Shown here piece by piece: positions 3,627-63,846 of a DNA stretch of 64,000 bases. This DNA is from Patescibacteria group bacterium. Its GTDB lineage: Bacteria; Patescibacteriota; Minisyncoccia; Phycocordibacterales; UBA12079. The notes under the pieces are model-generated. The model had not been told where the DNA came from, did no database searches, and saw only the letters and a list, made by a program, of their open reading frames with translations. The stretch covers positions 8,775-72,774 of the forward strand of contig JAHITU010000007.1 in assembly GCA_018817595.1 (NCBI GenBank). The letters run 5' to 3'. Made by a program: the position numbers and the translations under genes. Numbering within the stretch: position 1 is the first letter of the stretch; each line of letters begins with the position of its first letter.

Positions 3627-5618
3627 TTATTCTGAAATCAATTCAAAATCGATTACTTGTTTGTCTAAATCAGTTTTGACTAATTTTACTCTAACCTTGT
3701 CTCCTAGGGTATGCTTTACCCTTGTTTTTTGTCCCACTAGGCGATAATGCTTAGTATCTAATTCATAGTAATCATCCTGAAGAGAACGAACACTAATCAT
3801 TCCTTCAGCTCCGTTTTCTGCTTGGACATACACACCCCATTTTGTAATTCCAGAAATAATTCCTTCGAATTCCTGACCAATTTTACTCGACATTAACTCT
3901 GTGAACTTATATTTCGTAGAAGCTCTTTCGGCTGTTACGGCTGCAATTTCTTGTTGAGTGGATTTGCTGGTTAATTCTTTGTATTTTTTAATAGAACGAG
4001 GAGAAAGATTTTTCCCTGCTAAATAATTTTTCATCAAACGATGCACCATCATATCAGGGTAACGACGAATAGGTGAAGTGAAGTGAGTATAATGTTTGAA
4101 TCCTAAACCAAAATGCCCAATATTTTGAGTCGAGTAAATTGCCTTTGCCATTGATTTAAGCATAGCCGTAGCAATCAAATCTTCTTCTGGCAAACCTTCA
4201 ATTTTCATTAATAAATCATTCAATTCTTTTGAAGAAACTTTATTATCTTTGATTTTTAAATTGAATCCAATAGTTTTTAGGAACTCTGACAATTCTTTCA
4301 ATTGTTCTGTTTTAGGTACATCGTGAATTCTATAAACAAAAGGTAATTGAATCTTCAGTTTTTCTTCTTGATGACTTATATATTGGGCTACTTCGCGATT
4401 AGCTAAAAGCATAAAGTCTTCAATTAACTCATTAGTATCCATCATTTGCTTTTCGTAAACATCAATAGCCTTTCCGGTTTTGTCCAAAATAAATTTGTAT
4501 TCGTTTGATCCAAAGGAAATAGAACCTTTTTCGGTTCTGTCAGCTCGGAGAATTAGAGCCAATTCATTCAAGGTATTTAATTCCTTATAGAATTCACCAG
4601 CTTTATTATCCAAGGTTTCTTGAGCATTTTTGTAGGTGAATCTTTTGTCAGAATGAATAATAGTTTCTCCAAACCATCTAGCTTTTACTTGTGCATTTTT
4701 ATCTATTATGAAAACAGCAGAATAAGTCAATTTGTCTTCATTAGGATTAAGAGAACATAGGTTATTAGAAAGCACTTCAGGAAGCATCGGAATCGTACGG
4801 TCTATTAGATAAACAGAGGTACATCTAACAGTAGCTTCACGGTCTATTGGGGAGTCAATAGGAACATAGTGGGTTACATCAGCGATATGAACTCCAATTT
4901 CATAATCCCCATTTTCTAATTCTTTGAACGATAAAGCATCATCAAAATCCTTGGCGTCATCAGGGTCGATAGTAAAAGTAATTCTGTCTCGCATATCCTT
5001 TCTCTTAGGAATTTCTTGAGCGAAGTCTTTTAGAGCTTGTTTGGATATAACTTCGGCTTCAGCTTCGACACCTTCTGGAAAATCAGGTTCAAAACCTTTT
5101 TCATAAAGAATAGCTTGCATTTCAGTTTCATTGTCACCCTTATGTCCGATTACTTTAATTATTTTTCCTTGAGGATTTTTCTTTGGGTCATTCCATTCAG
5201 ACATTTCAGCTACGATTTTTACATCATGGCTGGGGATTTCTCCATCACTAAGGTCTAGGTCTAAACGGGGGTAAAATTTAATATCATCGGCAACTAAAAA
5301 ATAACCTTCATTATCTTTTCCTAAGGTTCCTACAAATTTAGTTTTAACTCTGTTTAATATTTCAGTAACTTTGGCTATTTTAGTCCCTGCCTGCCGAGAG
5401 GCATGGTTTCCTCTTTTAGCTACTTTGATTTTTACTATATCTCCATTTAGAGCAGTATTCAAATCAAAGTCAGAAATTTCAAAATCTCCGTGTTCGGTTT
5501 TCAAGAAACCACGCTTTCTTGTGGTTACTATAATATTACCTTCATAAAATTCTTGCTCTTTATCTTGAGATTTTTTATGTTTCTTTTCATATGTCTTGTT
5601 TTTCTTCATACCCCACAT
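3627..5618 (-). CDS. rnr: ribonuclease R (RNB-domain 3'-5' exoribonuclease with C-terminal S1 domain)
   Basis: 663 aa. RNB catalytic core and a C-terminal S1-like segment GIISGITKWGVYVQ...GMISVRSL. Confidence 0.85.
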   Translation of the reverse strand: MWGMKKNKTYEKKHKKSQDKEQEFYEGNIIVTTRKRGFLKTEHGDFEISDFDLNTALNGDIVKIKVAKRGNHASRQAGTKIAKVTEILNRVKTKFVGTLGKDNEGYFLVADDIKFYPRLDLDLSDGEIPSHDVKIVAEMSEWNDPKKNPQGKIIKVIGHKGDNETEMQAILYEKGFEPDFPEGVEAEAEVISKQALKDFAQEIPKRKDMRDRITFTIDPDDAKDFDDALSFKELENGDYEIGVHIADVTHYVPIDSPIDREATVRCTSVYLIDRTIPMLPEVLSNNLCSLNPNEDKLTYSAVFIIDKNAQVKARWFGETIIHSDKRFTYKNAQETLDNKAGEFYKELNTLNELALILRADRTEKGSISFGSNEYKFILDKTGKAIDVYEKQMMDTNELIEDFMLLANREVAQYISHQEEKLKIQLPFVYRIHDVPKTEQLKELSEFLKTIGFNLKIKDNKVSSKELNDLLMKIEGLPEEDLIATAMLKSMAKAIYSTQNIGHFGLGFKHYTHFTSPIRRYPDMMVHRLMKNYLAGKNLSPRSIKKYKELTSKSTQQEIAAVTAERASTKYKFTELMSSKIGQEFEGIISGITKWGVYVQAENGAEGMISVRSLQDDYYELDTKHYRLVGQKTRVKHTLGDKVRVKLVKTDLDKQVIDFELISE

Positions 5619-10012: not shown

Positions 10013-10040
10013 GGTCTATAAAGTCAAAAGTAACAAATTT

Positions 10041-10190
10041 TTACTTCGTAAAAATTCGTAGACGAAAAGCTAAAGCTTTTCGTCTTTGCGAGGAGTGTAG
10101 CGTAGCGAAATGACGAAGCAATCTCTTTACGTTCGTCTCTGCGAGGAGCGGAACGCAGTGGAGCGATGTGGCAGTCCAGAAATAATAAAT
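10041..10190. repeat. MITE-like repeat, tandem pair, with conserved termini CGTCTYTGCGAGGA ... GACGAAGCA(G/A)TC
   Basis: CGTCTTTGCGAGGA...GACGAAGCAATCTC, then CGTCTCTGCGAGGA...GGCAGTCCAGAAAT. Same termini as the copies at 13339, 26521, 41033 and 42575. Confidence 0.55.
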
Positions 10191-10388: not shown

Positions 10389-11729
10389 TTGTCAAGTAAT
10401 ATCATGAAAAACATATTCAAAAAAATAATAGTTTCAATTCTTCAATTTGAAGCCAAATTAGTATTGAAGAAATATAAACCAAAGATTGTGGCTGTGACTG
10501 GTTCAGTAGGAAAGACCACTACCAAAGATGCAATTTACACAGTTTTAAATTCAGCTTTTTATGTTAGAAAATCTGAGAAATCTTTTAATAGTGAAATTGG
10601 TGTACCTCTAACTATTTTAGGTTGTGAAAATGCTTGGAGTAACCCTTTTCTTTGGGTTAAAAATATCTTTATAGGTTTAGGAGTTATTTTATTAAAAAAT
10701 CATTATCCAAAATGGTTAATTTTAGAAGTTGGTGCTGATGCTCCGGGAGACATAAAGAGGTCAGCTAAACTATTAAGACCAAACATTGTGGTTATGACTC
10801 AATTTGCTAAAGTCCCTGTTCATGTTGAATTTTTTAAATCCCCTCAAGATTTAATGGATGAAAAAAAGAAGTTAGCTAAATATATGAGAAGAAATGGAAT
10901 TTTAGTTTTTAATTATGATGATGAAGATATGGCTTCCATTAAAATTCCAACTGATGCCCAAAAAATATCTTTTGGTTACAAAGATGGAGCAGATATTCAA
11001 GGAATGAATGATGAAATATTATATAAGGATGGAGCTCCTGTAGGACAAATGTTTAGAGTCGAATATGCTGGAGCTTCAGCCCCTATGAAATTAAATGGTG
11101 TTATAGGAAAAGCTCATAGTTTTTCAGCCTTAGCAGCTATTGCTGTGGGAGCCTCACAAAATTTAAACGTCGCTCAGATTTCAGAAGCTTTAGCTAAAAA
11201 TTATAGAACTCAACCAGGAAGAATGAGAGTTCTAAAAGGAATAAAGAAAACTACATTAATCGATGATTCATATAATGCTTCTCCTATTGCTGTGCAAAAA
11301 GCTGTAGAAACTATGGGAATGCTAAGGGTTAAAGAAGAGGGGGTTGATCCTGAAGAACATCACGGTCGCAAAATAGTGGCTTTAGGTGATATGCTCGAGC
11401 TTGGAAAATTCTCAGCAGAAGAGCATAAAAAAATAGGGGAGTTAGTTGCTAAGAATGCAGATGTTTTAGTAGCTGTTGGTCTGCGAGCTCAACAACATAT
11501 TGTAGAAGGAGCTTTGATTGGTGGCATGAGTGAAAAAAATATTTTTTCATTTGAAAAATCAGATGAAGCTGGAAAATTTTTACAGAATGAAATTCACGAA
11601 AACGATATTGTTTTAATAAAAGGTTCTCAGTCAATTCGTATGGAAAAAATTACCGGAGAAATAATGGCAGAACCAGAAAAAAAGAGGGAATTGCTAGTGA
11701 GACAAGAAGCCGAATGGCTGCTGCGCTAA
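10389..11729 (+). CDS. murF: Mur ligase, UDP-MurNAc-pentapeptide synthetase (MurF-like, lacking the N-terminal domain)
   Basis: VAVTGSVGKTTTKD P-loop and C-terminal DDSYNASP motif. Confidence 0.75.
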   Translation: MSSNIMKNIFKKIIVSILQFEAKLVLKKYKPKIVAVTGSVGKTTTKDAIYTVLNSAFYVRKSEKSFNSEIGVPLTILGCENAWSNPFLWVKNIFIGLGVILLKNHYPKWLILEVGADAPGDIKRSAKLLRPNIVVMTQFAKVPVHVEFFKSPQDLMDEKKKLAKYMRRNGILVFNYDDEDMASIKIPTDAQKISFGYKDGADIQGMNDEILYKDGAPVGQMFRVEYAGASAPMKLNGVIGKAHSFSALAAIAVGASQNLNVAQISEALAKNYRTQPGRMRVLKGIKKTTLIDDSYNASPIAVQKAVETMGMLRVKEEGVDPEEHHGRKIVALGDMLELGKFSAEEHKKIGELVAKNADVLVAVGLRAQQHIVEGALIGGMSEKNIFSFEKSDEAGKFLQNEIHENDIVLIKGSQSIRMEKITGEIMAEPEKKRELLVRQEAEWLLR

Positions 11730-13160: not shown

Positions 13161-13338
13161 TGAATATATTTTAACATATTATATCCCACCTCTTTTTATT
13201 TTATTTGTTGATAAATGCCATACTAGTCCAATCGATTGGAATATTCCAATCGATTGGACTATTTTTTTGTTTATTATTTTGTTTACTTTTTTAATTTTAA
13301 TATTTCTGCTAATATTATAGTAACGCACAACCTCATAA

Positions 13339-15520: not shown

Positions 15521-16516
15521 ATGTTAAGAAAATTTAGATCAGAAGAAATTGCTAAAAAACATAAGAGAATTTTTTGGTTAAAATTCACCTTGTTTTGGAT
15601 TTTGTTGTTCGCTTTGGTTTATTCACTTTCCTATGCTTCTAAACAAGAAAAAATAAATATTCAGAATATAAATATAAACGGAAACAAAGTAATTCAAGAA
15701 GAAGAAATCCTAAAAATAGTAAACGAAAATTTAGAAGGTAATTATCTATGGTTGTTTCCTAAATCAAATATTTTTATCTACCCAAAATCTAAAATAAAAG
15801 AAGATTTATTAAATTCTTTTTTGAGGATAAAAGAATTAATGGTGACTTTTAATGATTTACAAAGCATAGATATAAATATAGAAGAAAGAACCCCCTTCGC
15901 CTTATATTGTGAAAAAAAAGACACTAACTTGGCAGTTGAACTGCCAAGTGAGGAATTAGAGCAAAATGATGAAATAAATAATGAAATTAATAATGAAATA
16001 GCTACTTCAACTAATTTCGCAACCAAGTTGCCAAATGATTCGGGTTTTGTCGATTTAGGAGAAATAAATGAAGAAGAATGTTATTTTATGGATAATGAAG
16101 CTTATATTTATGCAAAAGCAATGAGCTTTACCGATGATGTTTACTTTAAATATGAACAGGAATCATTAAAAACAAATAACTTGGGGGTAACACTCCCAAG
16201 TGATGGTAGAATATTAGGAAGAACTTATTTATCAGAATCTCCAGAAAGACATTTTGAAAAAATAAATTTATTTATTCGTTTTTTGAAGGATATTAATATC
16301 GATGTTTATAGATTGTTAGTAAAAGAAAACGGAGACTATGAACTAAGTTTTGATAATGGTTCGTTATTAATATTTGATGAAAAACAGGACTTTGATGTAT
16401 TATTAGAAAATCTCCAAGCCGTATTAATAGATCTTGGAGATTTAGAAGATAAAAAATTCGAATATATAGATTTAAGGTTTGATAATAAGGTACTCTATAA
16501 GTTTAAAGAGAAATGA
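15521..16516 (+). CDS. ftsQ: FtsQ/DivIB-like cell-division protein (POTRA)
   Basis: N-terminal TM, POTRA-like INIQNINIxGNKVIQEEEI segment, beta-rich C-terminus. Confidence 0.6.
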   Translation: MLRKFRSEEIAKKHKRIFWLKFTLFWILLFALVYSLSYASKQEKINIQNININGNKVIQEEEILKIVNENLEGNYLWLFPKSNIFIYPKSKIKEDLLNSFLRIKELMVTFNDLQSIDINIEERTPFALYCEKKDTNLAVELPSEELEQNDEINNEINNEIATSTNFATKLPNDSGFVDLGEINEEECYFMDNEAYIYAKAMSFTDDVYFKYEQESLKTNNLGVTLPSDGRILGRTYLSESPERHFEKINLFIRFLKDINIDVYRLLVKENGDYELSFDNGSLLIFDEKQDFDVLLENLQAVLIDLGDLEDKKFEYIDLRFDNKVLYKFKEK

Positions 16517-16941: not shown

Positions 16942-18102
16942 ATGATATTATCAAAAAATAATAAAATATGCAATATGTCAAATTTTTGGAAAAAAATAAA
17001 AGAAAACAAAAACTCCTCCTTCGCTGAAGCTTCGGCGAACAGGCCTTTTTTTGCATTGGCACCAATGTTGGATGTGACTGATTCGGCTTTTAGAGAAATA
17101 GTGGCTAAATATGGCAAACCAGATGTTTTGTGGACTGAGTTTGTTTCTTGTGATGGTATGTGTTCTGAGGGAAAAGAAAAATTAATGCACCTTTTGCATT
17201 ATACAGAAAAACAAAGACCGATTGTGGCTCAATTATTTGGGTCTAATCCAGAAAATTTTAAAAAAACTGCTCGCATTGTGGCTGAATTAGGATATGACGG
17301 AATTGATATAAATATGGGTTGTCCTCAAAAAACTATTCTTAAACAAGGAGCAGGGGCGTGTTTAATCTCCACTCCAGATTTAGCTCGAGAAATTATTAGA
17401 GCCACCAAGAAAGGAGCAGGGGATTTACCTGTGTCAGTCAAAACTAGAATTGGATATAAAGAAGACACATTAGAAGAATGGTTACCTGTAATTATAGAAG
17501 AAAAACCAGTGGCTATTACTGTTCATGGAAGGACTCAAAAAGAAATGTCTCAGGTGCCTGCTCGTTGGGATAGAATTAAAAAAGCAGTAGAAATGGCAAA
17601 AGGAACTGGGATTATAATGATTGGAAATGGAGATGTTAAATCTATTGAGGAGGGAATTGAGCGAGCCAAAGAATCAGGAGTGGACGGAGTAATGATTGGT
17701 CGCGGAATCTTCGGCAACCCATGGTTATTTAGTAGAAAATGCGGACAGGACGCTGATATATACAGAATTAACGCGGAAAAATTTGTAGGTACCGAGTACC
17801 TACAAATAGATAATGACTTGGACACCGGGTGTCCAAGTATTGAAGAAAAGTTAGGGGTTTTGATTGAACATATCGAATTGTATGAGAAATATTATGCTAA
17901 AGAATACAAAGAAGGGGATTGGGTCTTTAAGTCTTCTCGCTCTGATGGGCGAATAAAACCTTTTAATATGATGAAAAAACATATAGGAGCTTATGTAAAA
18001 GAATTCAAAGGAGCCAAAGAGCTAAGAATGGAATTAATGGAAACAGAAAGTGAAAAAGAAGCGGTAGATATTTTAAAAAAATATCTAAGATTTAAGATTT
18101 AA
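16942..18102 (+). CDS. dus: tRNA-dihydrouridine synthase
   Basis: ALAPMLDVTDSAFR FMN-binding TIM-barrel signature and catalytic Cys region. Confidence 0.85.
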   Translation: MILSKNNKICNMSNFWKKIKENKNSSFAEASANRPFFALAPMLDVTDSAFREIVAKYGKPDVLWTEFVSCDGMCSEGKEKLMHLLHYTEKQRPIVAQLFGSNPENFKKTARIVAELGYDGIDINMGCPQKTILKQGAGACLISTPDLAREIIRATKKGAGDLPVSVKTRIGYKEDTLEEWLPVIIEEKPVAITVHGRTQKEMSQVPARWDRIKKAVEMAKGTGIIMIGNGDVKSIEEGIERAKESGVDGVMIGRGIFGNPWLFSRKCGQDADIYRINAEKFVGTEYLQIDNDLDTGCPSIEEKLGVLIEHIELYEKYYAKEYKEGDWVFKSSRSDGRIKPFNMMKKHIGAYVKEFKGAKELRMELMETESEKEAVDILKKYLRFKI

Positions 18103-18345
18103 GAATTATGATTTAAGAACGAATTTTACTCTGCAAAATAAATGAAAAGCCTGCGGACAGCCTGCCCACTCCTGCCGGCGCGCAGGGGCGGACAGGCGAC
18201 TTGAGGTGTTGGATTTCAACAATTTGGGCTTGATTTTTGGAGTAATGTCAGATATTCTAATTTAAAGAATAGTTCTGTTTTTCAATGTAATTTTTTAATT
18301 ATGTTGAAAATGTAATTTAACCTAGTAAATTAGAGGAGAGTATTT

Positions 18346-24663: not shown

Positions 24664-24902
24664 TCTTTTGACTTTAAGGACTTTCGACCTTATACTTGTG
24701 CATATGTTCGATCAAAAAAATCAAAAAAGAATAAAAATCGTTTGGGCAATTTTAGGAATACTAGTAGCAGTCAGTATGGTTCTCGTTTATATACCATTCT
24801 AAATTTTAGATTTTAAATTTAAAAATTTACTTTGTAAATTTTTCCTAACACCTAAACCTGCCTGCTGGCAGGCAGGTAGCTAACACCTAACAACCTAATA
24901 AA

Positions 24903-25298: not shown

Positions 25299-25463
25299 TA
25301 GAATAGTACAATGAGTCGAAAGTCTATAAAGCCTGCCTGCCGGCAGGCAGGTCCGTAAAGTCAAAAGTTATGAATTTTACTTTGTAAAATTCATTTTTGT
25401 CTGACGGCAAGTAATGGTTATAAAAAATTTTTTATATTAATAATTTAATAAAATATAAATAGT

Positions 25464-40961: not shown

Positions 40962-41032
40962 CGAGTCGAAAGTCAAAAGTCCATAACCTGCCTGCCGGCA
41001 GGCAGGAGTCGAAAGTTAAAAAATTTTAATTT

Positions 41033-41153
41033 TTCGTCTTTGCGACCCAGCACTTTGTTATAATCATATAAATAAAATTTATTAAAAATAAATAATAATT
41101 GTAAGATAAAAAATAAGTAATTTTATTCAAAGTGCTGGGGAAGCAATCTAGAA
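41033..41153. repeat. MITE-like repeat CGTCTTTGCGAC-CCAGCACTTTG ... CAAAGTGCTGGGG-AAGCAATCTAGAAA
   Basis: Conserved termini and 12-bp inverted arms. Lies immediately upstream of the Bro-N gene. Confidence 0.55.
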
Positions 41154-51112: not shown

Positions 51113-51748
51113 ATGTTAGTTTTTATTGATGAATCCGGAGATCCAGGATTAAAAATGAATAGCGGTTCAAGTCGGTTTTTTACTATTGCTTTGGTAGTAT
51201 TTGAAGATTATGATGAGGCTACTAATTGTGATAGAAGAATTGAATTATTAAAGAAAGAATTAAGTTGGAGTGATAATTCAGAATTTCATTTTAAGAAAAA
51301 CTCTTTAAGAGTTAGGGATTCGTTTTTTAAAGCTGTTATGCCTTATAATTTTTTCTATTATGGTATTGTCATAAACAAAGATCCTAACAAACTTTATGGA
51401 GAAGGTTTCAAGAATAAATCTTCTTTTTATAAATATGCATGTAGTCTTGTTTTTGAGAATGCAAAAGATAAATTAAGTAAATCAATTGTTGTTATAGATA
51501 AAAATGGAAATAATGAATTTCGTAATCAATTAGCTAAATATTTAAGAAGAAAGATGAACATTGATAAAAAGAAGATTAGAAAAGTTAAGATGCAGAAATC
51601 TGAATCCAACAATTTGTTACAGTTGGTTGATTATGTTGCTGGGGCAATAAATAGATCTATTGTTAACTCAAGAAAAGATTCTCAGGTTTTTAGAAAAATG
51701 CTTAGTCGTAAAGAAATGTATGTTCAAGTGTGGCCAAAAAAAGAATAA
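51113..51748 (+). CDS. DUF3800 family protein
   Basis: N-terminal MLVFIDESGD and C-terminal LQLVDYVAGAI motifs, both characteristic of DUF3800. Confidence 0.65.
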   Translation: MLVFIDESGDPGLKMNSGSSRFFTIALVVFEDYDEATNCDRRIELLKKELSWSDNSEFHFKKNSLRVRDSFFKAVMPYNFFYYGIVINKDPNKLYGEGFKNKSSFYKYACSLVFENAKDKLSKSIVVIDKNGNNEFRNQLAKYLRRKMNIDKKKIRKVKMQKSESNNLLQLVDYVAGAINRSIVNSRKDSQVFRKMLSRKEMYVQVWPKKE

Positions 51749-51954
51749 AAGAAAACCACCGAACCTATCCTTGCGGAACGCAGTGATAAACACTACAGTT
51801 TGGTTCGGTGGCACTTCCTTAATTGAAACTATAACATTTTATATCAAAAAATCAAGTAAACTGTGGATAACTAAAACATTGTAAATAAAATTTAAATTAG
51901 CTCTAAAAGAGCAGAACGGCTCAACGACTTGAGCTATTTAAAATAAATGAAAAT

Positions 51955-52662: not shown

Positions 52663-52875
52663 GTGTTAAAAATAACACAAATAACCCCAAAATCAGATGA
52701 AATTCGAGGAAGTGAGGGAAAATATTTTGAGTTTTTAAAAAGAGGTACGACTTCGGAATTGGTAAAACTAAACAAATTACTAAAGATTGCTGGTATACAC
52801 GTTAAGAAGTCGGACCTCGAAAACTTAAATATTTTCCAGAGGGCTGACGAAGAAGTTCGTTGGTTTTTAGATTAG
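52663..52875 (+). CDS. small hypothetical protein; a degenerate paralogous fragment follows at 52881-52960
   Basis: 70 aa. Downstream fragment ...SKLSEVRGGKKKYLE resembles ...KSDEIRGSEGKYFE. Confidence 0.4.
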   Translation: MLKITQITPKSDEIRGSEGKYFEFLKRGTTSELVKLNKLLKIAGIHVKKSDLENLNIFQRADEEVRWFLD

Positions 52876-53000
52876 GTTGTAAATAACTCAAAATTAAGTG
52901 AAGTTCGAGGAGGTAAGAAAAAATACCTTGAGTCGTATCGGGCATACGACGAAAGGTATTTTTTTGAAACCGACAATGAAATTCCTTAATTTTGGGTTAT

Positions 53001-59010: not shown

Positions 59011-59220
59011 ATTTAATTATTTTAGTATTAAGTATTATGTAGTAAGTATTATGGAGGCCCGACTCCTGCTTATGGCAGGTTCAGGAAAATATTTTTCATC
59101 GTATGCTCGATACGACTCAAAATATTTTCCTGCTCTTCCTCGAACTGTATTCAATTTTGGGATTATTTAAAAAATTAAGCAATTAACTTTAAGGTCGGCA
59201 TTACCGACCTTTTTAAATTA

Positions 59221-59638
59221 TTCATTACAGCGCTCCAAGCGCTGTAATCATGTCGCAAAATTACTTGGACACCCGGTGTCCAAGTGGTTTTAATTTCTAG
59301 AAATTCTGATTGCGTCAAAATTAATCACAGTTCGCTAAAGGTGAACCATCTCTTTGAGCCTGTCCGTCTCAGATGTGGTGATAGCGAAACTATAACTATA
59401 GATGGTTACAAAATCAATCCAGAATCCATTCAACGAAGCAAGTCAGAAAATAATTTAAACTATTCCAATTGATTGGAATAGTTAAAAAATATCGCAAAAT
59501 TACTTGGACACCCGGTGTCCAATGATTCTAATTTTTAGAAATATTGATTTTTCTTGCTAATTCCTTAAATTTAATGTATAAAATCAACAGAAGTTTGGAT
59601 GAAAATTGAATAAATATTAAATAAAAAGGGGAGTAAAG
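59221..59638 (+). promoter_or_regulatory. conserved ~420-bp leader module, copy 1 (structured, with two palindromic operator-like sites overlapping promoter-like hexamers)
   Basis: Hairpin TTACAGCGCTCCAAGCGCTGTAA. ACTTGGACACCCGGTGTCCAAGT at 59263-59285 and 59502-59522. TTGGAC-17-TTTAAT geometry. Nearly identical to 60645-61106. Confidence 0.6.
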
Positions 59639-60592
59639 ATGAAAGCTTTAAAACCGAAAAGTTCAGAATTGTTTGTAGATTCTGTTAAAAGTAAAAAGGA
59701 ATGGATTATGAAAATAATTCTCTTTATTTTGGGAATTTTTATTTTGTTCTGTCTTTGGTGTGTCGGAACTGAGGCTGTGGCTGGAATAACCCAGCAAGAA
59801 ATAACCAATGACGGGGTAAACTCAGGAATGGGCGAAATCCCACAGATTTATAAAAAGGATGGAAAATTCTTTATTCATAAATCTCCAGCGGATATGGTTG
59901 TTGATGAGGCTCCAAAAGAATGGGGGATTTCGTCAGAAGATCAAGAGTCATTGGCTCTTGGTAAAAAGAGTTTTGTCTCTGTTTCTTCAAAGAAAATTGA
60001 ATTTATTTTTTGGGGAAAGTGGATCCCTGAAACCTTGACCGTTATTTACAAAAAAATAGTTAGAATTGAGGATGGAAAATTTTTTCTTTATCATCTTGAT
60101 CCTGTTATGGAACCTAAAATCCAATTTGTACTTCTAACCCTATCCTTCTTTGTCTTTAGTTGTGGTCTGGTTAATGGAAGATTTGCAGGTGTAAATAATG
60201 GTGGATTCTTATGGATTCCTCTTTTTTTATTAGGTCCTATAATTGTGTTGTTAATTATTTTCCTAATTCCATTAATTAATAAAATAATTTTAGAATTCGA
60301 AATTATTTTATTAGCAATTATTTTTTGTTTTATTTTATTATATTACTTATTCCATAAAAACAAAAAAAAAATAGTAACAACTAATGTAATTTCAATTTCA
60401 ATAATCATAATAATAATTGCAGTTTCATTTTTTTCTTGCAATTATTTACAGAATTTTTACTATTTTTTCCTTTTATATTTTCTTTCATATTTTATTTCTT
60501 TTTTCTTTACTCGAAGAAAAGAAGTAAAAGAAAAGAGGAAAGACATGAATTTTTCAAGAATAAGTGGAGTAGGGGGTTCTAAAAAAAATTAA
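59639..60592 (+). CDS. hypothetical polytopic membrane protein (paralog A)
   Basis: N-terminal signal anchor, soluble domain of about 110 aa, several TM helices. Paralog of the 61107-61877 product. Confidence 0.6.
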   Translation: MKALKPKSSELFVDSVKSKKEWIMKIILFILGIFILFCLWCVGTEAVAGITQQEITNDGVNSGMGEIPQIYKKDGKFFIHKSPADMVVDEAPKEWGISSEDQESLALGKKSFVSVSSKKIEFIFWGKWIPETLTVIYKKIVRIEDGKFFLYHLDPVMEPKIQFVLLTLSFFVFSCGLVNGRFAGVNNGGFLWIPLFLLGPIIVLLIIFLIPLINKIILEFEIILLAIIFCFILLYYLFHKNKKKIVTTNVISISIIIIIIAVSFFSCNYLQNFYYFFLLYFLSYFISFFFTRRKEVKEKRKDMNFSRISGVGGSKKN

Positions 60593-60644
60593 TCAGTGAA
60601 TACAACCCCAACCGGTGAGCCTTGTGCCCACCGGTTGTTTTATT

Positions 60645-61106
60645 TATTACAGCACTCCGAGCGCTGTAATCATGTCGCAAAATTACTTGGACACCCGGTG
60701 TCCAAGTGGTTTTAATTTATAGAAATTCTGATTTCGTCAAAATTAATCACAGTTCGCTAAAGGTGAACCATCTCTTTGAGCCTGTCCGTCTCAGATGTGG
60801 TGATAGCGAAACTATAACTATAGATGGTTACAAAATCAATCCAGAATCTATTCGTCTTTGAGAGGTGAATGGATTTTTGGTTTTTGTAAAAACCAAAAAT
60901 CCATTCAACGAGGCAAGTCAGAAAATAATTTAAACTATTCCAATTGATTGGAATAGTTAAAAAATGTCACAAAATTACTTGGACACCCGGTGTCCAATGA
61001 TTCTAATTTTTAGAAATTTAATATTTCTTGCTAATTCCATAAATTTAATGTATAAAATCAACAGAAGTTTGGATGAAAATTGAATAAATAATTTATAAAA
61101 AGGGGA
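60645..61106 (+). promoter_or_regulatory. conserved leader module, copy 2 (with a 52-bp hairpin insertion at about 60849-60906)
   Basis: >95% identical to 59221-59638. Palindromes at 60685-60707 and 60977-60997. Extra perfect inverted repeat GAATGGATTTTTGGTTTTTGTAAAAACCAAAAATCCATTC. Confidence 0.6.
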
Positions 61107-61877
61107 TTGAAGATGAAAACTTTAAAGTTTAAGGGCTCGGATTTGTTCGTGGATTCCATGAGAAACAACAAAAAAGTTTTGATAAAAACCTTTTTGATCA
61201 TACTGGGCTTGTTTATTTTATTTTGTATTTGTTGTGCTATTTGTGAAGCAAATGAGCAAGTATCGAATTTAAATCAGCAGGGGATTTTCTCTTCTGAAAT
61301 CTCTGAGGTTAAAAATGTTTTTAAAACAAGGACGGGGTGGGTAGTGTATAATGATTACCCTGACCAGGTTTTCATAGACCCTTTGGCCGATTGGGATTAT
61401 ATGAGAATTGATCCTAATTATCATAAAGAATTAAAAAAGGTAATCTTAGGCCAAGAAAGTTGTTATTCTGCCACTAAATTAAAAAGATATGTTGTTTTCT
61501 GGGGAAAATTAGTTCCGGAAGTGAGGAGTAAAACCATTTATCGAAAAATTTTTGTAAGGGATGGACAATGGGGTATTGTTGAATCTAATCCTTTTCACAG
61601 TAATGAAACCAATGCTTTCTTTTTATTGGTTCCTTTATTTGTGATTTTATTGGGAATTGTAACATGGATTTTTTTTAAGGATGACAGTCGAATAGGATTA
61701 TCGTTTTTTATATTGATAATTTCAGCTATGTCATATATTTTTAGTTTAGATTATTGGATGAACAGTTTATATTTTTTAATTTTTATTTCTTTGGGATTTT
61801 TCTTAGGCCTTCTGAACGAAAAGAAAAATAAAAAACCTTATTCAAAAACAGGCTCAACTCAAAGTGCTGAGTTGTAG
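61107..61877 (+). CDS. hypothetical polytopic membrane protein (paralog B)
   Basis: Same architecture as paralog A. The sequences are strongly diverged, unlike their leaders. Confidence 0.6.
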   Translation: MKMKTLKFKGSDLFVDSMRNNKKVLIKTFLIILGLFILFCICCAICEANEQVSNLNQQGIFSSEISEVKNVFKTRTGWVVYNDYPDQVFIDPLADWDYMRIDPNYHKELKKVILGQESCYSATKLKRYVVFWGKLVPEVRSKTIYRKIFVRDGQWGIVESNPFHSNETNAFFLLVPLFVILLGIVTWIFFKDDSRIGLSFFILIISAMSYIFSLDYWMNSLYFLIFISLGFFLGLLNEKKNKKPYSKTGSTQSAEL

Positions 61878-61920
61878 TTGAAAACACAAACCCCAACCGG
61901 TGAGCCTTGTGCCCACCGGT

Positions 61921-61990
61921 TGTTTTATTTATTACAGCACTCCGAGCGCTGTAATCATGTCGCAAAATCACTTGGGAATCCAATTTCCAA
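61921..61990 (+). promoter_or_regulatory. partial third copy of the leader 5' module upstream of dnaX
   Basis: ATTACAGCACTCCGAGCGCTGTAATCATGTCGCAAAAT + CACTTGGGAATCCAATTTCCAAGTG, a variant palindrome with the same arms. Followed by a TATAAT-like -10. Confidence 0.5.
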
Positions 61991-62046
61991 GTGGATTTAT
62001 TTTTGTAAAAATTACCTAATCTATTATTTTTTGATATAATATTTCC

Positions 62047-63084
62047 ATGGATAAAAATAACTTAGTTTTATATAGAAAATACCGTCCTTCAAAATTCTCT
62101 GAGGTTTTAGGACAAGATCATATTGTGGATACATTACAAAAAGCTATTTCCTTAGGGAATATTGCCCACGCTTATTTGTTTTCTGGTACTCGAGGAACTG
62201 GCAAAACTTCTATTGCTAGACTTTTGGCTCAAGAAATAAAATGCTCAGCCAACGATTTAAATGAAATTGATGCTGCTTCCAATCGTGGAATTGATGATAT
62301 TCGGGAACTGCGAGAAGCTGTGACAGTTTTGCCTTTTGAATCTCCCTACAAAGTTTATATTATCGACGAAGTTCATATGCTTACCAAAGAGGCTTTCAAT
62401 GCTCTTTTGAAAACATTAGAAGAACCACCTAAACATGTTGTTTTTGTTTTGGCGACAACTGAGTTAGAGAAAATCCCTGATACAATTATGTCCCGTTGCC
62501 AGACCTTTAATTTTAAAAAACCTTCTCTAGAAATTCTTAAAAAAGCCATCCTAGATATTTGTAAAAAGGAAAAACTTGAATTAGAAAATGGAGCCGAGGA
62601 TTTGATTGCTTTACTAGGTGATGGTTCTTTTAGAGATACTTTAGGAATTTTACAAAAAGTAATTTCAGCTTCTAAGGATTCAAAAATATCTACCAAAGAA
62701 GTAGAAAAAATTACAGGAGCTCCAAAAGGGGAGTTGGTAAATGATTTTATTTCAGCTATTTCAGAAAAGGATTTAGATAGGGGATTAAAGGCTGTGCAAC
62801 AAGCCAGTGAAGACTCTATTGATGCCCAATTGTTCTTAAAATTGATTTTACACAAGCTTAGAGCGATTCTGTTGGTAAGATTTGCCAAAGATATGTTAAA
62901 GACTGTAAGGGATGATTTTTCAGAAATAGATTTTGAATTTATACAGGAATTAGCCAATCGTAATGATTCAAACCTAAACTCTAAAACACTGGTTTCACTA
63001 ATTGAATCCTCTTCTTTAATTAAACAATCTTATATTTCTCAATTACCATTAGAATTGGCATTGATGGAATTGATTGAAAATTAA
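62047..63084 (+). CDS. dnaX: DNA polymerase III gamma/tau subunit (short form)
   Basis: YRPSKFSEVLGQDHIV...AYLFSGTRGTGKTSIARLLA clamp-loader AAA+ signature. Confidence 0.85.
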   Translation: MDKNNLVLYRKYRPSKFSEVLGQDHIVDTLQKAISLGNIAHAYLFSGTRGTGKTSIARLLAQEIKCSANDLNEIDAASNRGIDDIRELREAVTVLPFESPYKVYIIDEVHMLTKEAFNALLKTLEEPPKHVVFVLATTELEKIPDTIMSRCQTFNFKKPSLEILKKAILDICKKEKLELENGAEDLIALLGDGSFRDTLGILQKVISASKDSKISTKEVEKITGAPKGELVNDFISAISEKDLDRGLKAVQQASEDSIDAQLFLKLILHKLRAILLVRFAKDMLKTVRDDFSEIDFEFIQELANRNDSNLNSKTLVSLIESSSLIKQSYISQLPLELALMELIEN

Positions 63085-63136: not shown

Positions 63137-63207
63137 TGCCGGATCGTCTAATGGTAGGACACTGGTTTTTGGTACCAGCGATCGGGGTTCGAGTCCCTGT
63201 CCGGCAA
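63137..63207 (+). tRNA. tRNA-Gln (anticodon TTG)
   Basis: Acceptor TGCCGGA/TCCGGCA, D-stem GTCT/GGAC, anticodon stem CTGGT/ACCAG with loop TTTTGGT, T-loop TTCGAGT. Confidence 0.8.
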
Positions 63208-63612
63208 CTATAAAAATAAAGACACTAGAATGAATATTCTAGTGTCTTTATTTTTATTTGTCCGGCAGGGGCTCGAAAGACGAAGGCTGCGAAGCCAGTT
63301 TTTCGAAGAAAAACTGTAGCCGAGTCGGGGTCGCGAGTACTTATTATTTTTGAGTGCGAAGCACGAAAAAAATAATTAGTAACTCGTGACCGAGTCCCTG
63401 TCCGGCAACATATAAAATATAGACCCTAAAGCACTAGCTTTAGGGTCTATATTTTATTTGTCGGACAGGGACTTGAAACGAGCGAAATATATTTTTCTGA
63501 AGCGTTAGCGGAAGAAAAATTTGAGTGAGCAGGGTCGCGAGTTCTTAATAGAATTGAGTCCGTAGGACGAAAATTATATTTAGAACTGGAGACCGAGTCC
63601 CTGTAAAACAAC
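63208..63612 (+). ncRNA. two tandem copies of the tRNA-trailing structured element, each ending in a copy of the tRNA-Gln 3' end
   Basis: Copy 1 runs to about 63409 (…AATTAGTAACTCGTGACCGAGTCCCTGTCCGGCAAC). Copy 2 runs to about 63612 (…GAGACCGAGTCCCTGTAAAACAAC). Each has a terminator hairpin and an inverted TGTCCGGCAGGGGCTCG / TGTCGGACAGGGACTTG. Confidence 0.6.
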
Positions 63613-63846
63613 ATGATTAAATAACCCTAAAGCACTAGCTTTAGGGTCTATATTTAATATCCATCTACTATCACAGGTTCGAACCTGTGTGATGTTTAAT
63701 ATGGTTGGGTAGGGAATAGGTTTTGAAAACTAGTTAGTTAAAGAGAAATTATTGCATTAAATTTTAAAATGCGTTGCTATTTTTTTAGTAAGAGTGTATT
63801 TTATTAATAGATAGTTCGTTCAAATAAATCACTTAAGAGGTGTCCT

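Follow-up and report, generated by a model that had tools for sequence, protein, structure and literature searches.

The gap between rnc and dnaX in an uncultured Patescibacteria genome holds, in tandem, two highly dissimilar versions of a fast-evolving membrane-protein gene, each preceded by a block of ~420 bp that is 96-97% identical between the two copies when a 53-nt insertion in copy 2 is set aside. The near-identical upstream DNA probably stems from recent recombination between flanking hairpin repeats, and the cargo genes from old divergent alleles. All positions refer to the window, the whole stretch of 64 kb that was analyzed (74 kb of the genome was available in all), which comes from a metagenomic contig of MEGAHIT k141 type. 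Recombination history alone can produce a leader that seems better conserved than its cargo, and without relatives for comparison such a pattern is easily taken for a regulatory RNA or an integron.

Divergence of genes and flanks

The first gene, ORF1 (G1), lies at 59639..60592 on the + strand and encodes a protein of 317 aa with a predicted layout of an N-terminal TM helix, a beta-rich domain of ~90-100 aa, and then five TM helices; an identical protein sequence is present in a second sample, SRR6514274. Its paralog, ORF2 (G2), lies at 61113..61877 (+) and encodes 254 aa. An initial reading made from the sequence alone (the sequence-only reading) had placed ORF2 at 61107-61877; its end is right, but homology (MKTLKFK...) favors the ATG at 61113 over the TTG at 61107. 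The two proteins share 31% amino-acid identity over 188 aa (BLASTP). G2 is the most divergent member of the family, at 20-28% identity to other members, and the G1-G2 identity of 27% is lower than the 37-40% between G1 and the genes of other species. Of the 77 alignment columns with identical amino acids, only 39 also have the same codon, and just 7 of 17 fourfold sites agree. The gene bodies are anciently diverged, with saturation at synonymous sites, which agrees with the strong divergence first ascribed to the ORFs behind the leaders and rules out a recent duplication combined with positive selection. A simple recent duplication, in which the genes would be as conserved as the leaders, is likewise contradicted by these codon and fourfold-site counts beside flanks of 96-97% identity.

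No Pfam family was found for ORF1, 5.8 billion proteins contained only three homologs of the cargo family, and protein searches recovered no full-length G2-like gene elsewhere; an AlphaFold model of the cargo protein (mean pLDDT 53.8) was too poor for a fold search. The cargo is a lineage-restricted, very fast-evolving gene for a multi-pass membrane protein, with a family confined to a handful of uncultured genomes, and its product may be surface-exposed and subject to diversifying selection. These observations mark the rnc-dnaX gap as a recombination-prone site with a hypervariable membrane protein, in a lineage that is uncultured and probably host-attached; membrane proteins that vary in this way are candidate mediators of interactions with the host or with phages.

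The flanks differ far less than the genes. Positions 59218-59431 match 60640-60853 at 97%, and 59416-59542 match 60891-61017 at 95%; alignment over 59221-59638 gives 401 matches, 16 mismatches, and 56 gap columns (96.2% of aligned bases, or 16 differences between copies in 417 aligned bases), bearing out the near-identical ~420-bp leader pair that had been reported. Between the two units, identity is 95-100% from 59225 to ~59610, drops gradually to 55% across approximately the first 80 nt of the ORF, runs at ~40% along the gene, and is back to 100% from 60604. From there, a block of 80 nt made up of the terminator, the first hairpin, and ATCATGTCGCAAAAT is 100% identical at 60604-60683 and 61889-61968, and the partial third copy that had been noticed before dnaX is thus real. 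Flanks at ~97% identity beside genes with saturated synonymous sites indicate that concerted evolution or recombination has been at work. Of the two explanations originally offered, a functional non-coding module or concerted evolution, the latter is sustained, with flanks far younger than the genes; a selected leader is not.

The same present-day picture could result from an ancient tandem pair that arose in situ, if gene conversion homogenized the flanks, not the bodies, with tracts stopping where ORF homology decays. Consistent with this are the identity gradient over the first ~80 nt of the ORFs, with no sharp edge, the ancient synonymous divergence of the genes, and the complete identity of the terminator-hairpin block in its two copies. 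We regard such a history as possible though rather unlikely. It is disfavored only by parsimony, in that two relatives described below, L004 and L020, have exactly one copy each. The distal part of the leader is missing from both and must therefore be younger than the G1/G2 split, and the junction between the units is a hybrid that fits one crossover.

The junction between the units

Repeat unit 1 (59218-60644) opens with hairpin H (59224..59248, +; ATTACAGCGCT-CCA-AGCGCTGTAAT), followed by a module, D-a (59252..59300, +), that consists of the A-tract TCGCAAAAT, the 23-nt hairpin ACTTGGACACCCGGTGTCCAAGT (59263-59285), and a T-rich tail. In unit 2, H and D-a lie at 60646..60722 (+) and form a recombinant junction, as read from the variant pattern in the alignment. 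The partial third copy, H plus D3, lies at 61931..62005 (+), with a variant hairpin, ACTTGGGAATCCAATTTCCAAGT, at 61970-61992 and a T-rich tail. Although a hairpin had been described in each leader, only the copy-1 H is perfect; in copies 2 and 3, H has two substitutions, one of which produces an A.C mismatch within the stem. Unit 2 thus shares both H variants (A at 60654, G at 60659) with the dnaX-side copy. Up to GCAAAAT, copy 2 is identical to copy 3; from 60684 on it is of copy-1 type. Because its start is of dnaX-side type on the left and copy-1 type on the right, the exchange point falls within the shared 24 nt AGCGCTGTAATCATGTCGCAAAAT, and the hybrid fits an unequal crossover inside this stretch. 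The hallmarks of tandem duplication are present, namely, direct repeats around the unit and a novel junction that is a hybrid of both.

The rnc-dnaX gap is a variable site in this clade (Patescibacteria, Paceibacteria-like), where a cassette gene with its own promoter and terminator may be present. Under the recombination history that we favor, the ancestor of this locus would have had a single cassette with the same two-hairpin module on either side (H plus A-tract, 23-nt hairpin, and T-tract), resembling a bidirectional terminator or insulator. Unequal homologous recombination between the two flanking modules would have generated the two-cassette array, the start of unit 2 being the dnaX-side module (left) joined to the unit-1 module (right). 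The bodies of G1 and G2 would be old divergent alleles from a recombining pool, one of which may have entered by crossover with the DNA of another strain or by later replacement of one copy via the conserved flanks. The “leader” itself is a lineage-specific patchwork of dispersed hairpin repeats, mostly upstream of the real promoter, and the flanks would owe their ~97% identity to youth rather than to constraint. We infer this pathway from the arrangement of repeats and variants seen today.

It is highly unlikely that the array is an assembly artefact, with two strain alleles of a single-cassette locus joined by the metagenome assembler via shared repeats. The provenance of the sequence as a MEGAHIT k141 metagenome contig is compatible with such an error, as is the Logan contig from the second sample, which is only 1 kb long and ends at both repeat edges. 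However, neither the longest stretch of exact identity between the units (~107 nt) nor the 80-nt terminator-H-D block reaches k = 141, so that a path through terminator-H-D-a needs real junction-spanning k-mers, and the junction is a specific hybrid rather than a plain copy of either flank.

Promoters and terminators

The promoter of ORF1 (59554..59582, +) was read directly and has a phylogenetic footprint: the -35 element TTGCTA (59554-59559) and the -10 element TATAAA (59577-59582) are separated by a 17-nt spacer, and both hexamers and their spacing are kept in L004 and L020, in which the spacer sequence differs. A Shine-Dalgarno sequence, AAGGGGAG, follows at 59626-59633 (+). ORF2 has a promoter of the same TTGCTA-17-TATAAA architecture at 61028..61056 (+). 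The intrinsic terminator of ORF1 (60604..60641, +) has its stem at 60609-60637, followed by TTGTTTT, and is identical to that of ORF2 (61889..61926, +). Each cassette does close with the same terminator, as had been proposed: the stem CAACCGGTGAGCCTTGTGCCCACCGGTTG has exactly two occurrences (60609-60637 and 61894-61922), where none is expected. The terminator is also kept in L004, L020, and two further relatives, L024 and L025, with compensatory changes in the stem. On the downstream side, the dnaX promoter (62012..62049, +; -35 TTACCT at 62012-62017, TGATATAAT, -10 at 62035-62040) is conserved in L004, L020, and L025, and the dnaX mRNA, with its start codon at 62047 (+), is probably leaderless. 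A hairpin lies 5' of the dnaX promoter in L004, L025, L020, and L022, with compensatory changes, and is missing where rnc abuts dnaX.

Composition of the upstream block

Module D-a is a direct repeat of a second module, D-b (59491..59550, +), which comprises another A-tract and a truncated hairpin (59504-59522) and is ~89% identical to D-a over 62 nt; the 5' part of D-a equals the module upstream of dnaX. The operator-like palindrome said to occur twice in each leader is present, but the second instance is truncated (TTGGACACCCGGTGTCCAA, then TG), and the spacing of the two is 239 or 292 bp. The promoter-like pairs reported as TTGGAC-17-TTTAAT are actually TTGGAC-18-TTTAAT and TTGGAC-17-TCTAAT. 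Other parts of the block are a central spacer (59301..59457, +), which has no counterpart in any relative, no Rfam match, and no significant fold, and the hairpin AACTATTCCAATTGATTGGAATAGTT (59458..59483, +), a member of a dispersed CCAATyrATTGG palindrome family that is also found at 13228/13246 of the window, at 20252 in L016, and at 11341 in L022. Copy 2 alone has an insertion of 53 nt (60854..60906, +), previously described as a 52-bp perfect hairpin at 60867-60906. The hairpin itself spans 60866-60907 with a perfect stem of 20 bp, the right arm of which reuses pre-existing flank sequence; the insertion contains TTCGTCTTTGAGAGG, which agrees at 14 of 15 positions with a repeat core found dispersed across the clade.

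With its A-tract, hairpin, and T-tract, D-a looks like a bidirectional terminator. A terminator consensus scan picks out 61968-61994 (+ strand) as well as 59522-59504 and 60997-60979 (- strand), and together with this anatomy the scan suggests a terminator or insulator role for the D hairpins; the terminator-like anatomy fits the intergenic hairpin copies. A 74-codon frame in the central spacer is without a ribosome-binding site and is interrupted by the copy-2 insertion, and Pfam searches with the leader reading frames found nothing. This frame was rejected as coding sequence, its sole HMMER match being a 6821-aa repeat protein with an E-value (6.5e-12) judged to be inflated by repeats, in that it sums seven weak stretches of ~10/30 identity each.

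A cis-regulatory leader under purifying selection, whether a structured RNA or riboswitch or an operator pair for a DNA-looping repressor, was considered as an explanation for the near-identical blocks in front of both paralogs. Each of the two palindromes, which are 239 or 292 bp apart, lies upstream of promoter-like hexamers, and the whole leader folds far better than shuffled sequences (z = -6.7). That fold signal stems from the palindromes, however, and the central 172 nt fold no better than shuffles (z = -1.0). Rfam searches of the whole window at gathering scores returned only tRNAs and one DUF3800-IX RNA, all outside the leader, and between 58900 and 62100 matches at E up to 10 were noise. 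The distal 330 bp of the leader lie upstream of the conserved promoter and are missing from every relative fetched, including the closest, L004; copy 2 tolerates a 53-nt insertion; and the palindrome also occurs in dus and has relatives in ftsQ-like, truB, and argS genes. On this evidence the leader is extremely unlikely to be a functional module held by selection.

Dispersed hairpin families

The palindrome of the leader is not leader-specific, in that it recurs at 17816-17838 within dus. It belongs to a hairpin family, ACTTGG-N11-CCAAGT, with members at 15927, 16179, and 17816 in the window, at 882 and 19802 in L016, and at 9934 in L022. Inner stems covary: the stem of the 23-nt hairpins is conserved in its lower 6 bp and covaries freely in its upper 4 bp. 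The ftsQ-like, truB, and argS genes contain members that differ in the upper stem, and in all four genes (ftsQ-like, dus, truB, argS) the hairpins are in frame, in one reading frame throughout. Those at 15927 and 16179 occupy segments of the ftsQ-like gene that are missing from its orthologs in L022 and L026, and at least one intragenic hairpin is a clean insertion of 8-9 codons relative to orthologs. The window contains 82 perfect hairpins with stems of at least 9 bp, compared with ~7 in shuffles. A family that is dispersed, has covarying stems, and extends into coding genes does not fit a private operator, the role suggested for this palindrome at the outset.

The 6-mers ACTTGG and CCAAGT are not enriched outside hairpins, and a reading as DNA-uptake sequences was rejected. 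Searches with the pattern CGCAAAAT-N-ACTTGG-N11-CCAAGT returned three stretches from 185,579 species genomes and eight from JGI metagenomes, mostly chance matches in GC-rich contigs; two of them, L006 (Patescibacteria) and L013, contain real hairpins, with a shared flank that the pattern itself required and that is not independent evidence. We give very little credence to the idea that the A-tract-hairpin modules (ACTTGG-N11-CCAAGT and variants) might be structure-specific recombination or insertion sites of an unrecognized hairpin-targeting system of Patescibacteria that captures cassettes between rnc and dnaX and seeds 23-nt in-frame insertions within housekeeping genes. The dispersed 23-nt family does offer a concrete, if small, starting point for understanding how such repeats propagate and are maintained in reduced genomes.

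The rnc-dnaX site in related genomes

The comparison of cassette number among relatives that the sequence-only reading had called for shows that the gap is either empty or contains a single gene, which may be homologous or unrelated. One homologous gene is present in L004 (DnaX 94% identical) and in L020 (DnaX 86%), and at least one in L024 (DnaX 89%) and L025 (DnaX 88%), both on truncated contigs. L022 and L023 have an unrelated 136-aa ORF in the gap, and L016-19 and L026/27 have no gene between rnc and dnaX. L022 has two 136-aa ORFs around dnaX, but the two are unrelated, and a parallel duplication there was rejected. The array studied here, L004, and L020 have the promoter TTGCTA-17-TATAAA and the Shine-Dalgarno sequence in common. 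The L004 gene is mosaic in structure. Around 61110-61150 its 5' end matches G2 at ~92%, over 59820-59880 it matches G1 at 92-98%, and the C-terminal half has L020 as its closest counterpart (45% amino-acid identity). A gene composed of both paralog types points to exchange among divergent alleles.

Variable content at one site also raises the question of an integron-like, site-specific cassette system, with the A-tract-hairpin modules as structure-specific recombination sites. In integrons, a tyrosine-recombinase gene, intI, lies next to the array together with attI and the Pc promoter, and the cassettes are promoterless, each ending in attC, an imperfect palindrome with RYYYAAC...GTTRRRY cores. 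The rnc-dnaX site resembles such arrays in its serial genes, in hairpin separators that keep their structure while varying in sequence, and in its zero, one, or two cassettes, including unrelated cargo in L022; a hairpin lies 5' of dnaX wherever a cassette is present, and GCAAAAT flanks the L004 cassette on both sides and is single in the empty site of L016. In contrast to integrons, no intI, attI, or attC cores were seen, each cassette has its own promoter and terminator, and homologous recombination accounts for the junction. Precomputed Pfam listings for the called genes (~9.6-65 kb of the contig) and further ORF scans revealed no integrase or other recombinase domain, and the genes of the 64 kb covered in this way included no transposase or HUH enzyme. 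The boundary hairpins are perfect palindromes of 23-25 nt in which, on reading the sequence, we saw no attC-like R/L boxes or RYYYAAC...GTTRRRY cores. Hairpins of the same kind also sit within essential genes, and the GCAAAAT duplication is only 7 nt long, lies in AT-rich DNA, and is missing in L020, L022, and L025. Searches of leader DNA against phage and plasmid records (blastn, distant mode) and of two patterns against viral contigs gave nothing relevant. The integron-type cassettes proposed initially are thus exceedingly improbable.

Comparison with known systems

The closest known process is segmental tandem duplication by unequal crossing-over between flanking direct repeats, combined with conversion or allelic replacement at hypervariable surface-protein loci. 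The array shares with it the direct repeats around the unit, the hybrid junction, a copy number that varies among relatives, and young homogeneous flanks around old mosaic interiors. It differs in that short terminator-like modules of two hairpins take the place of IS elements or rRNA operons as flanking repeats, and in its cargo family, which is of no known function and restricted to a few uncultured genomes.

Among repeat families, REP elements are dispersed palindromic hairpins of 20-40 bp tagged with GTAG/CGTC, mostly 3' of genes and occasionally intragenic, that are possibly active as RNA hairpins or terminators (PMC3733652). The 23-nt hairpins resemble them in size, dispersal, and location, and possibly in activity, but are conserved only in the lower 6 bp of their stem; the flanks of 13 aligned instances have no GTAG/CGTC tag, and no RAYT gene was found in the 64 kb (of 74 kb available). 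Rickettsia palindromic elements (RPEs), palindromic repeats of ~150 bp, are inserted in frame into protein-coding genes (PMC10969869), as the 23-nt hairpins are in ftsQ-like, dus, truB, and argS. In-frame repeated palindromes that are absent from orthologs characterize the hairpin family, not the whole leader; unlike RPEs, the hairpins are, at 23 nt, too short to encode a domain, and their hosts are Patescibacteria.

Template-switch mutations create and maintain perfect hairpins (PMC8794818). On their own they fail to explain a lower stem common to unrelated sites, and part of the copy-2 insertion matches the dispersed repeat core rather than nearby sequence. Two features are shared: the insertion adds the reverse complement of adjacent pre-existing sequence, which yields the perfect 20-bp hairpin, and stems are kept perfect by compensatory double changes.

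Near-identical flanks around two diverged genes

The two tandem membrane-protein genes are carried on a 74-kb MEGAHIT contig of an uncultured Patescibacteria bacterium (ENA ERZ27247128, k141_50138; G+C 31%), in a core chromosomal neighbourhood with the order dnaE, rpmF, nusB, rnc, both ORFs, dnaX, and tRNA-Gln. ORF1 (G1; 59639-60592, annotated by NCBI as hypothetical protein KKH36_01595) and ORF2 (G2; 61113-61877, start placed by homology) share 31% identity over 188 aligned amino acids. The near-identical repeat before each ORF, noticed in the sequence-only reading, is real: 59218-59431 matches 60640-60853 at 97% identity and 59416-59542 matches 60891-61017 at 95%. Over 59221-59638, this ~420-bp "leader" aligns with 401 matches, 16 mismatches, and 56 gap columns, nearly all of which are due to a single 53-nt insertion in copy 2. 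The common terminator and the partial third copy before dnaX were likewise confirmed, as the terminator stem occurs exactly twice and an 80-nt block comprising the terminator, the first leader hairpin (H), and ATCATGTCGCAAAAT recurs at 100% identity at 60604-60683 and at 61889-61968, the second of these sites being the third copy. The exact repeats, of 107 nt and of 80 nt or less, fall under the assembler k of 141, which argues against the tandem array being an assembly chimera.

In a sliding-window comparison of the two repeat units, identity stays at 95-100% until ~59610, drops to 55% across approximately the first 80 nt of the ORF, runs at ~40% within the coding body, and is again 100% at the terminator. 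Among 77 aligned columns having the same amino acid, 39 have identical codons, and 7/17 fourfold-degenerate sites match. Together, these comparisons indicate ancient divergence of the gene bodies between young flanks, which rules out a simple, recent duplication event whether or not positive selection acted on it. The earlier suggestion of concerted evolution was thus partly right, in that young, near-identical flanks surround old genes; its functional-leader, operator, and integron components were not supported. For the last of these, the 64-kb window yielded no integrase, transposase, or HUH enzyme, and nothing relevant matched in phage, plasmid, or viral collections.

Occupancy of the site in relatives

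Comparison of cassette number used syntenic loci of relatives fetched via DnaX homologs (percentages in this paragraph are DnaX identities). L004 (94%) and L020/L021 (86%) each carry a single homologous membrane gene between rnc and dnaX, and L024 (89%) and L025 (88%) carry at least one, on truncated contigs. In L022/L023 (84%) the gap is occupied by an unrelated Cys-rich ORF of 136 aa, and in L016-L019 (86%) and L026/L027 (84% and 83%) it is empty. Two gene copies occur only in this genome among the loci compared; the search for further copies in this genome covered 74 kb. The membrane-gene family is tiny (three proteins in a 5.8-billion-protein database), and no Pfam family was found for it. 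In a low-confidence structural model (pLDDT 53.8), one TM helix at the N-terminus appears to be followed by a beta-rich domain of ~90-100 residues and then by another five TM helices. Surface exposure and diversifying selection would be plausible.

Origin of the two-gene array

Hairpin H and the adjoining D module (A-tract, 23-nt hairpin, and T-rich tail) occur at three places: ahead of unit 1, at the junction of the two units, and upstream of dnaX. The copy 2 module equals the dnaX-side copy through H, with two variants in common versus copy 1, and on to GCAAAAT; from there on it follows copy 1, with the hairpin ACACC...GGTGT as part of the match. Such a hybrid is the product expected of unequal crossover between modules flanking a single cassette. 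We infer that a cassette with an H-D module on both sides would have undergone exchange inside the shared 24 nt, yielding two cassettes and the hybrid middle module, and that the genes would be divergent alleles drawn from a recombining pool.

Old in-situ paralogs with gene conversion limited to the flanks are a possible alternative. Against this, L004 and L020 each have a single gene copy, G1 is less similar to G2 (27%) than to the genes of other species (37-40%), and the gene of L004 has a mosaic structure, with a 5' end ~92% identical to G2, a stretch corresponding to 59820-59880 that is 92-98% identical to G1, and a C-terminal half closest to L020. These observations point instead to recombination within a set of divergent alleles, by which the two-cassette array was probably made at a variable site in a hairpin-rich genome.

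Most of the "leader" lies upstream of the promoter

None of the relatives fetched has a counterpart to the leader's distal 330 bp (59221-59550); different, unrelated hairpin repeats occupy its place in L004 and L020. Downstream of it, a promoter (TTGCTA-17 nt-TATAAA; 59554-59582 for ORF1 and 61028-61056 for ORF2) is common to L004 and L020, its hexamers kept and its spacer varying, as is the Shine-Dalgarno sequence. This absence, combined with the conserved promoter, argues that most of the "leader" is not transcribed. The leader has no match in Rfam, and although the block as a whole scores strongly for folding (z = -6.7), this signal is attributable to its palindromes, since the central 172 nt gives only z = -1.0; a functional leader is therefore unsupported. 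A coding frame through the leader was rejected, its sole database match being repeat-inflated.

The terminator is common to L004, L020, L024, and L025, with compensatory stem changes (CCAACCGGTGAG.. / CCAGCCGGTGAAC..). Several relatives with the homologous gene also have a hairpin immediately upstream of the dnaX promoter; among the hairpins at this position in five genomes, 97.8% of cells pair, with both-side changes at 6/9 pairs. The dnaX promoter itself (TTACCT-17-TATAAT with an upstream TG; region 62012-62049) ends 6 nt before the ATG at 62047, an arrangement that is the same in L004, L020, and L025, and from which dnaX appears to be leaderless.

Dispersed hairpin families

The palindrome proposed as an operator belongs to a dispersed 23-nt family, ACTTGG-N4-loop3-N4'-CCAAGT, whose members also lie inside coding genes, leaving the operator reading unsupported. 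Copies occur inside an ftsQ-like ORF (15927-15949 and 16179-16201), dus (17816-17838), truB (L016 882-904), and argS (L016 19802-19824), all in the frame xAC TTG G.. ... CCA AGT, and upstream of dnaX in L022 (at 9934). The copy at 16179 is a clean insertion of 8-9 codons relative to orthologs, and the dus hairpin is retained at the orthologous site as ACTTAG...CTAAGT, a double compensatory change, in L022 (20263-20285) and L026 (19328-19350). In 13 aligned instances, 96.9% of cells pair, and 3-5 pair types are seen at each of the four inner pairs, positions that the search pattern left free. The intragenic copies are reminiscent of REP or RPE elements, from which they differ in their much smaller length and in having no tag, and no mobilising enzyme is known for them. 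Hairpin 6-mers, taken singly, are not enriched, so an uptake signal was rejected. D modules located between genes, with an A-tract on the 5' side and a T-tract on the 3' side, score as terminator-like on one of the two strands; they may be terminators or insulators. The dus gene (16942-18102) is longer than its orthologs in L022, L023, and L026 by segments of 10, 27, and 14 aa; within the one of 27 aa, another perfect hairpin (17781-17807) lies immediately upstream of the ACTTGG one.

The leader palindrome CCAATTGATTGG is part of a second dispersed family. A third, with core TTCGTCTTTGCGAGG..ACGAAGCAATC, recurs in several of the clade's genomes at intergenic positions unrelated to one another (10036-10160, 41033-41047, and 60851-60865; L016 377-391); the copy-2-specific insertion contains a partial copy of it (14/15 core match), and two copies flank the L004 cassette (2813-2827 and 3990-4004). 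Perfect hairpins with stems of at least 9 bp number 82 in the window versus ~7 in shuffles, 69 of them in the 28% outside the ORFs considered. GC-rich perfect palindromes CCTGCCTGCCGGCAGGCAGG recur at 24856-24877, 25332-25351, and 40987-41006 despite the 31% G+C of the genome, with related pieces at 18150-18200 and 63258-63290. Identical perfect palindromes also occur as pairs a few hundred base pairs apart (28295-28322/28672-28699, 2527-2564/2903-2932, and 46936-46963/47113-47140), one pair spaced 377 bp beside a small MarR/HTH-type gene and another just upstream of tRNA-Glu; these may be operators or additional local duplications.

Other elements in the window

Directly upstream of leader copy 1 is a repeated element (59040-59216, +) with the conserved core ...AAAATATTTTCC..CTTCCTCGAA..ATTTTGGGrTTATT followed by a terminator hairpin (59191-59211) and T-run. 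Further copies lie downstream of dnaE (52877-52975 and 52679-52732, both -), including in a relative (L016 3231-3286), and the long stem shows compensatory changes between copies. The element includes a CU-rich stretch resembling an anti-Shine-Dalgarno sequence, has no match in Rfam, and is a candidate small RNA. After tRNA-Gln, two tandem ~200 bp units (63137-63660) each combine a long perfect hairpin with two copies of the tRNA 3' end, the inverted one first and after it the direct one (63381-63411 and 63584-63614); a similar unit follows tRNA-Gln in L022 (about 11050-11330), and these may be integration (att) remnants or a conserved structured element. Finally, an Rfam DUF3800-IX RNA motif (51751-51812, -; 47.2 bits versus a gathering score of 36.8) adjoins a DUF3800 protein gene (51113-51748).
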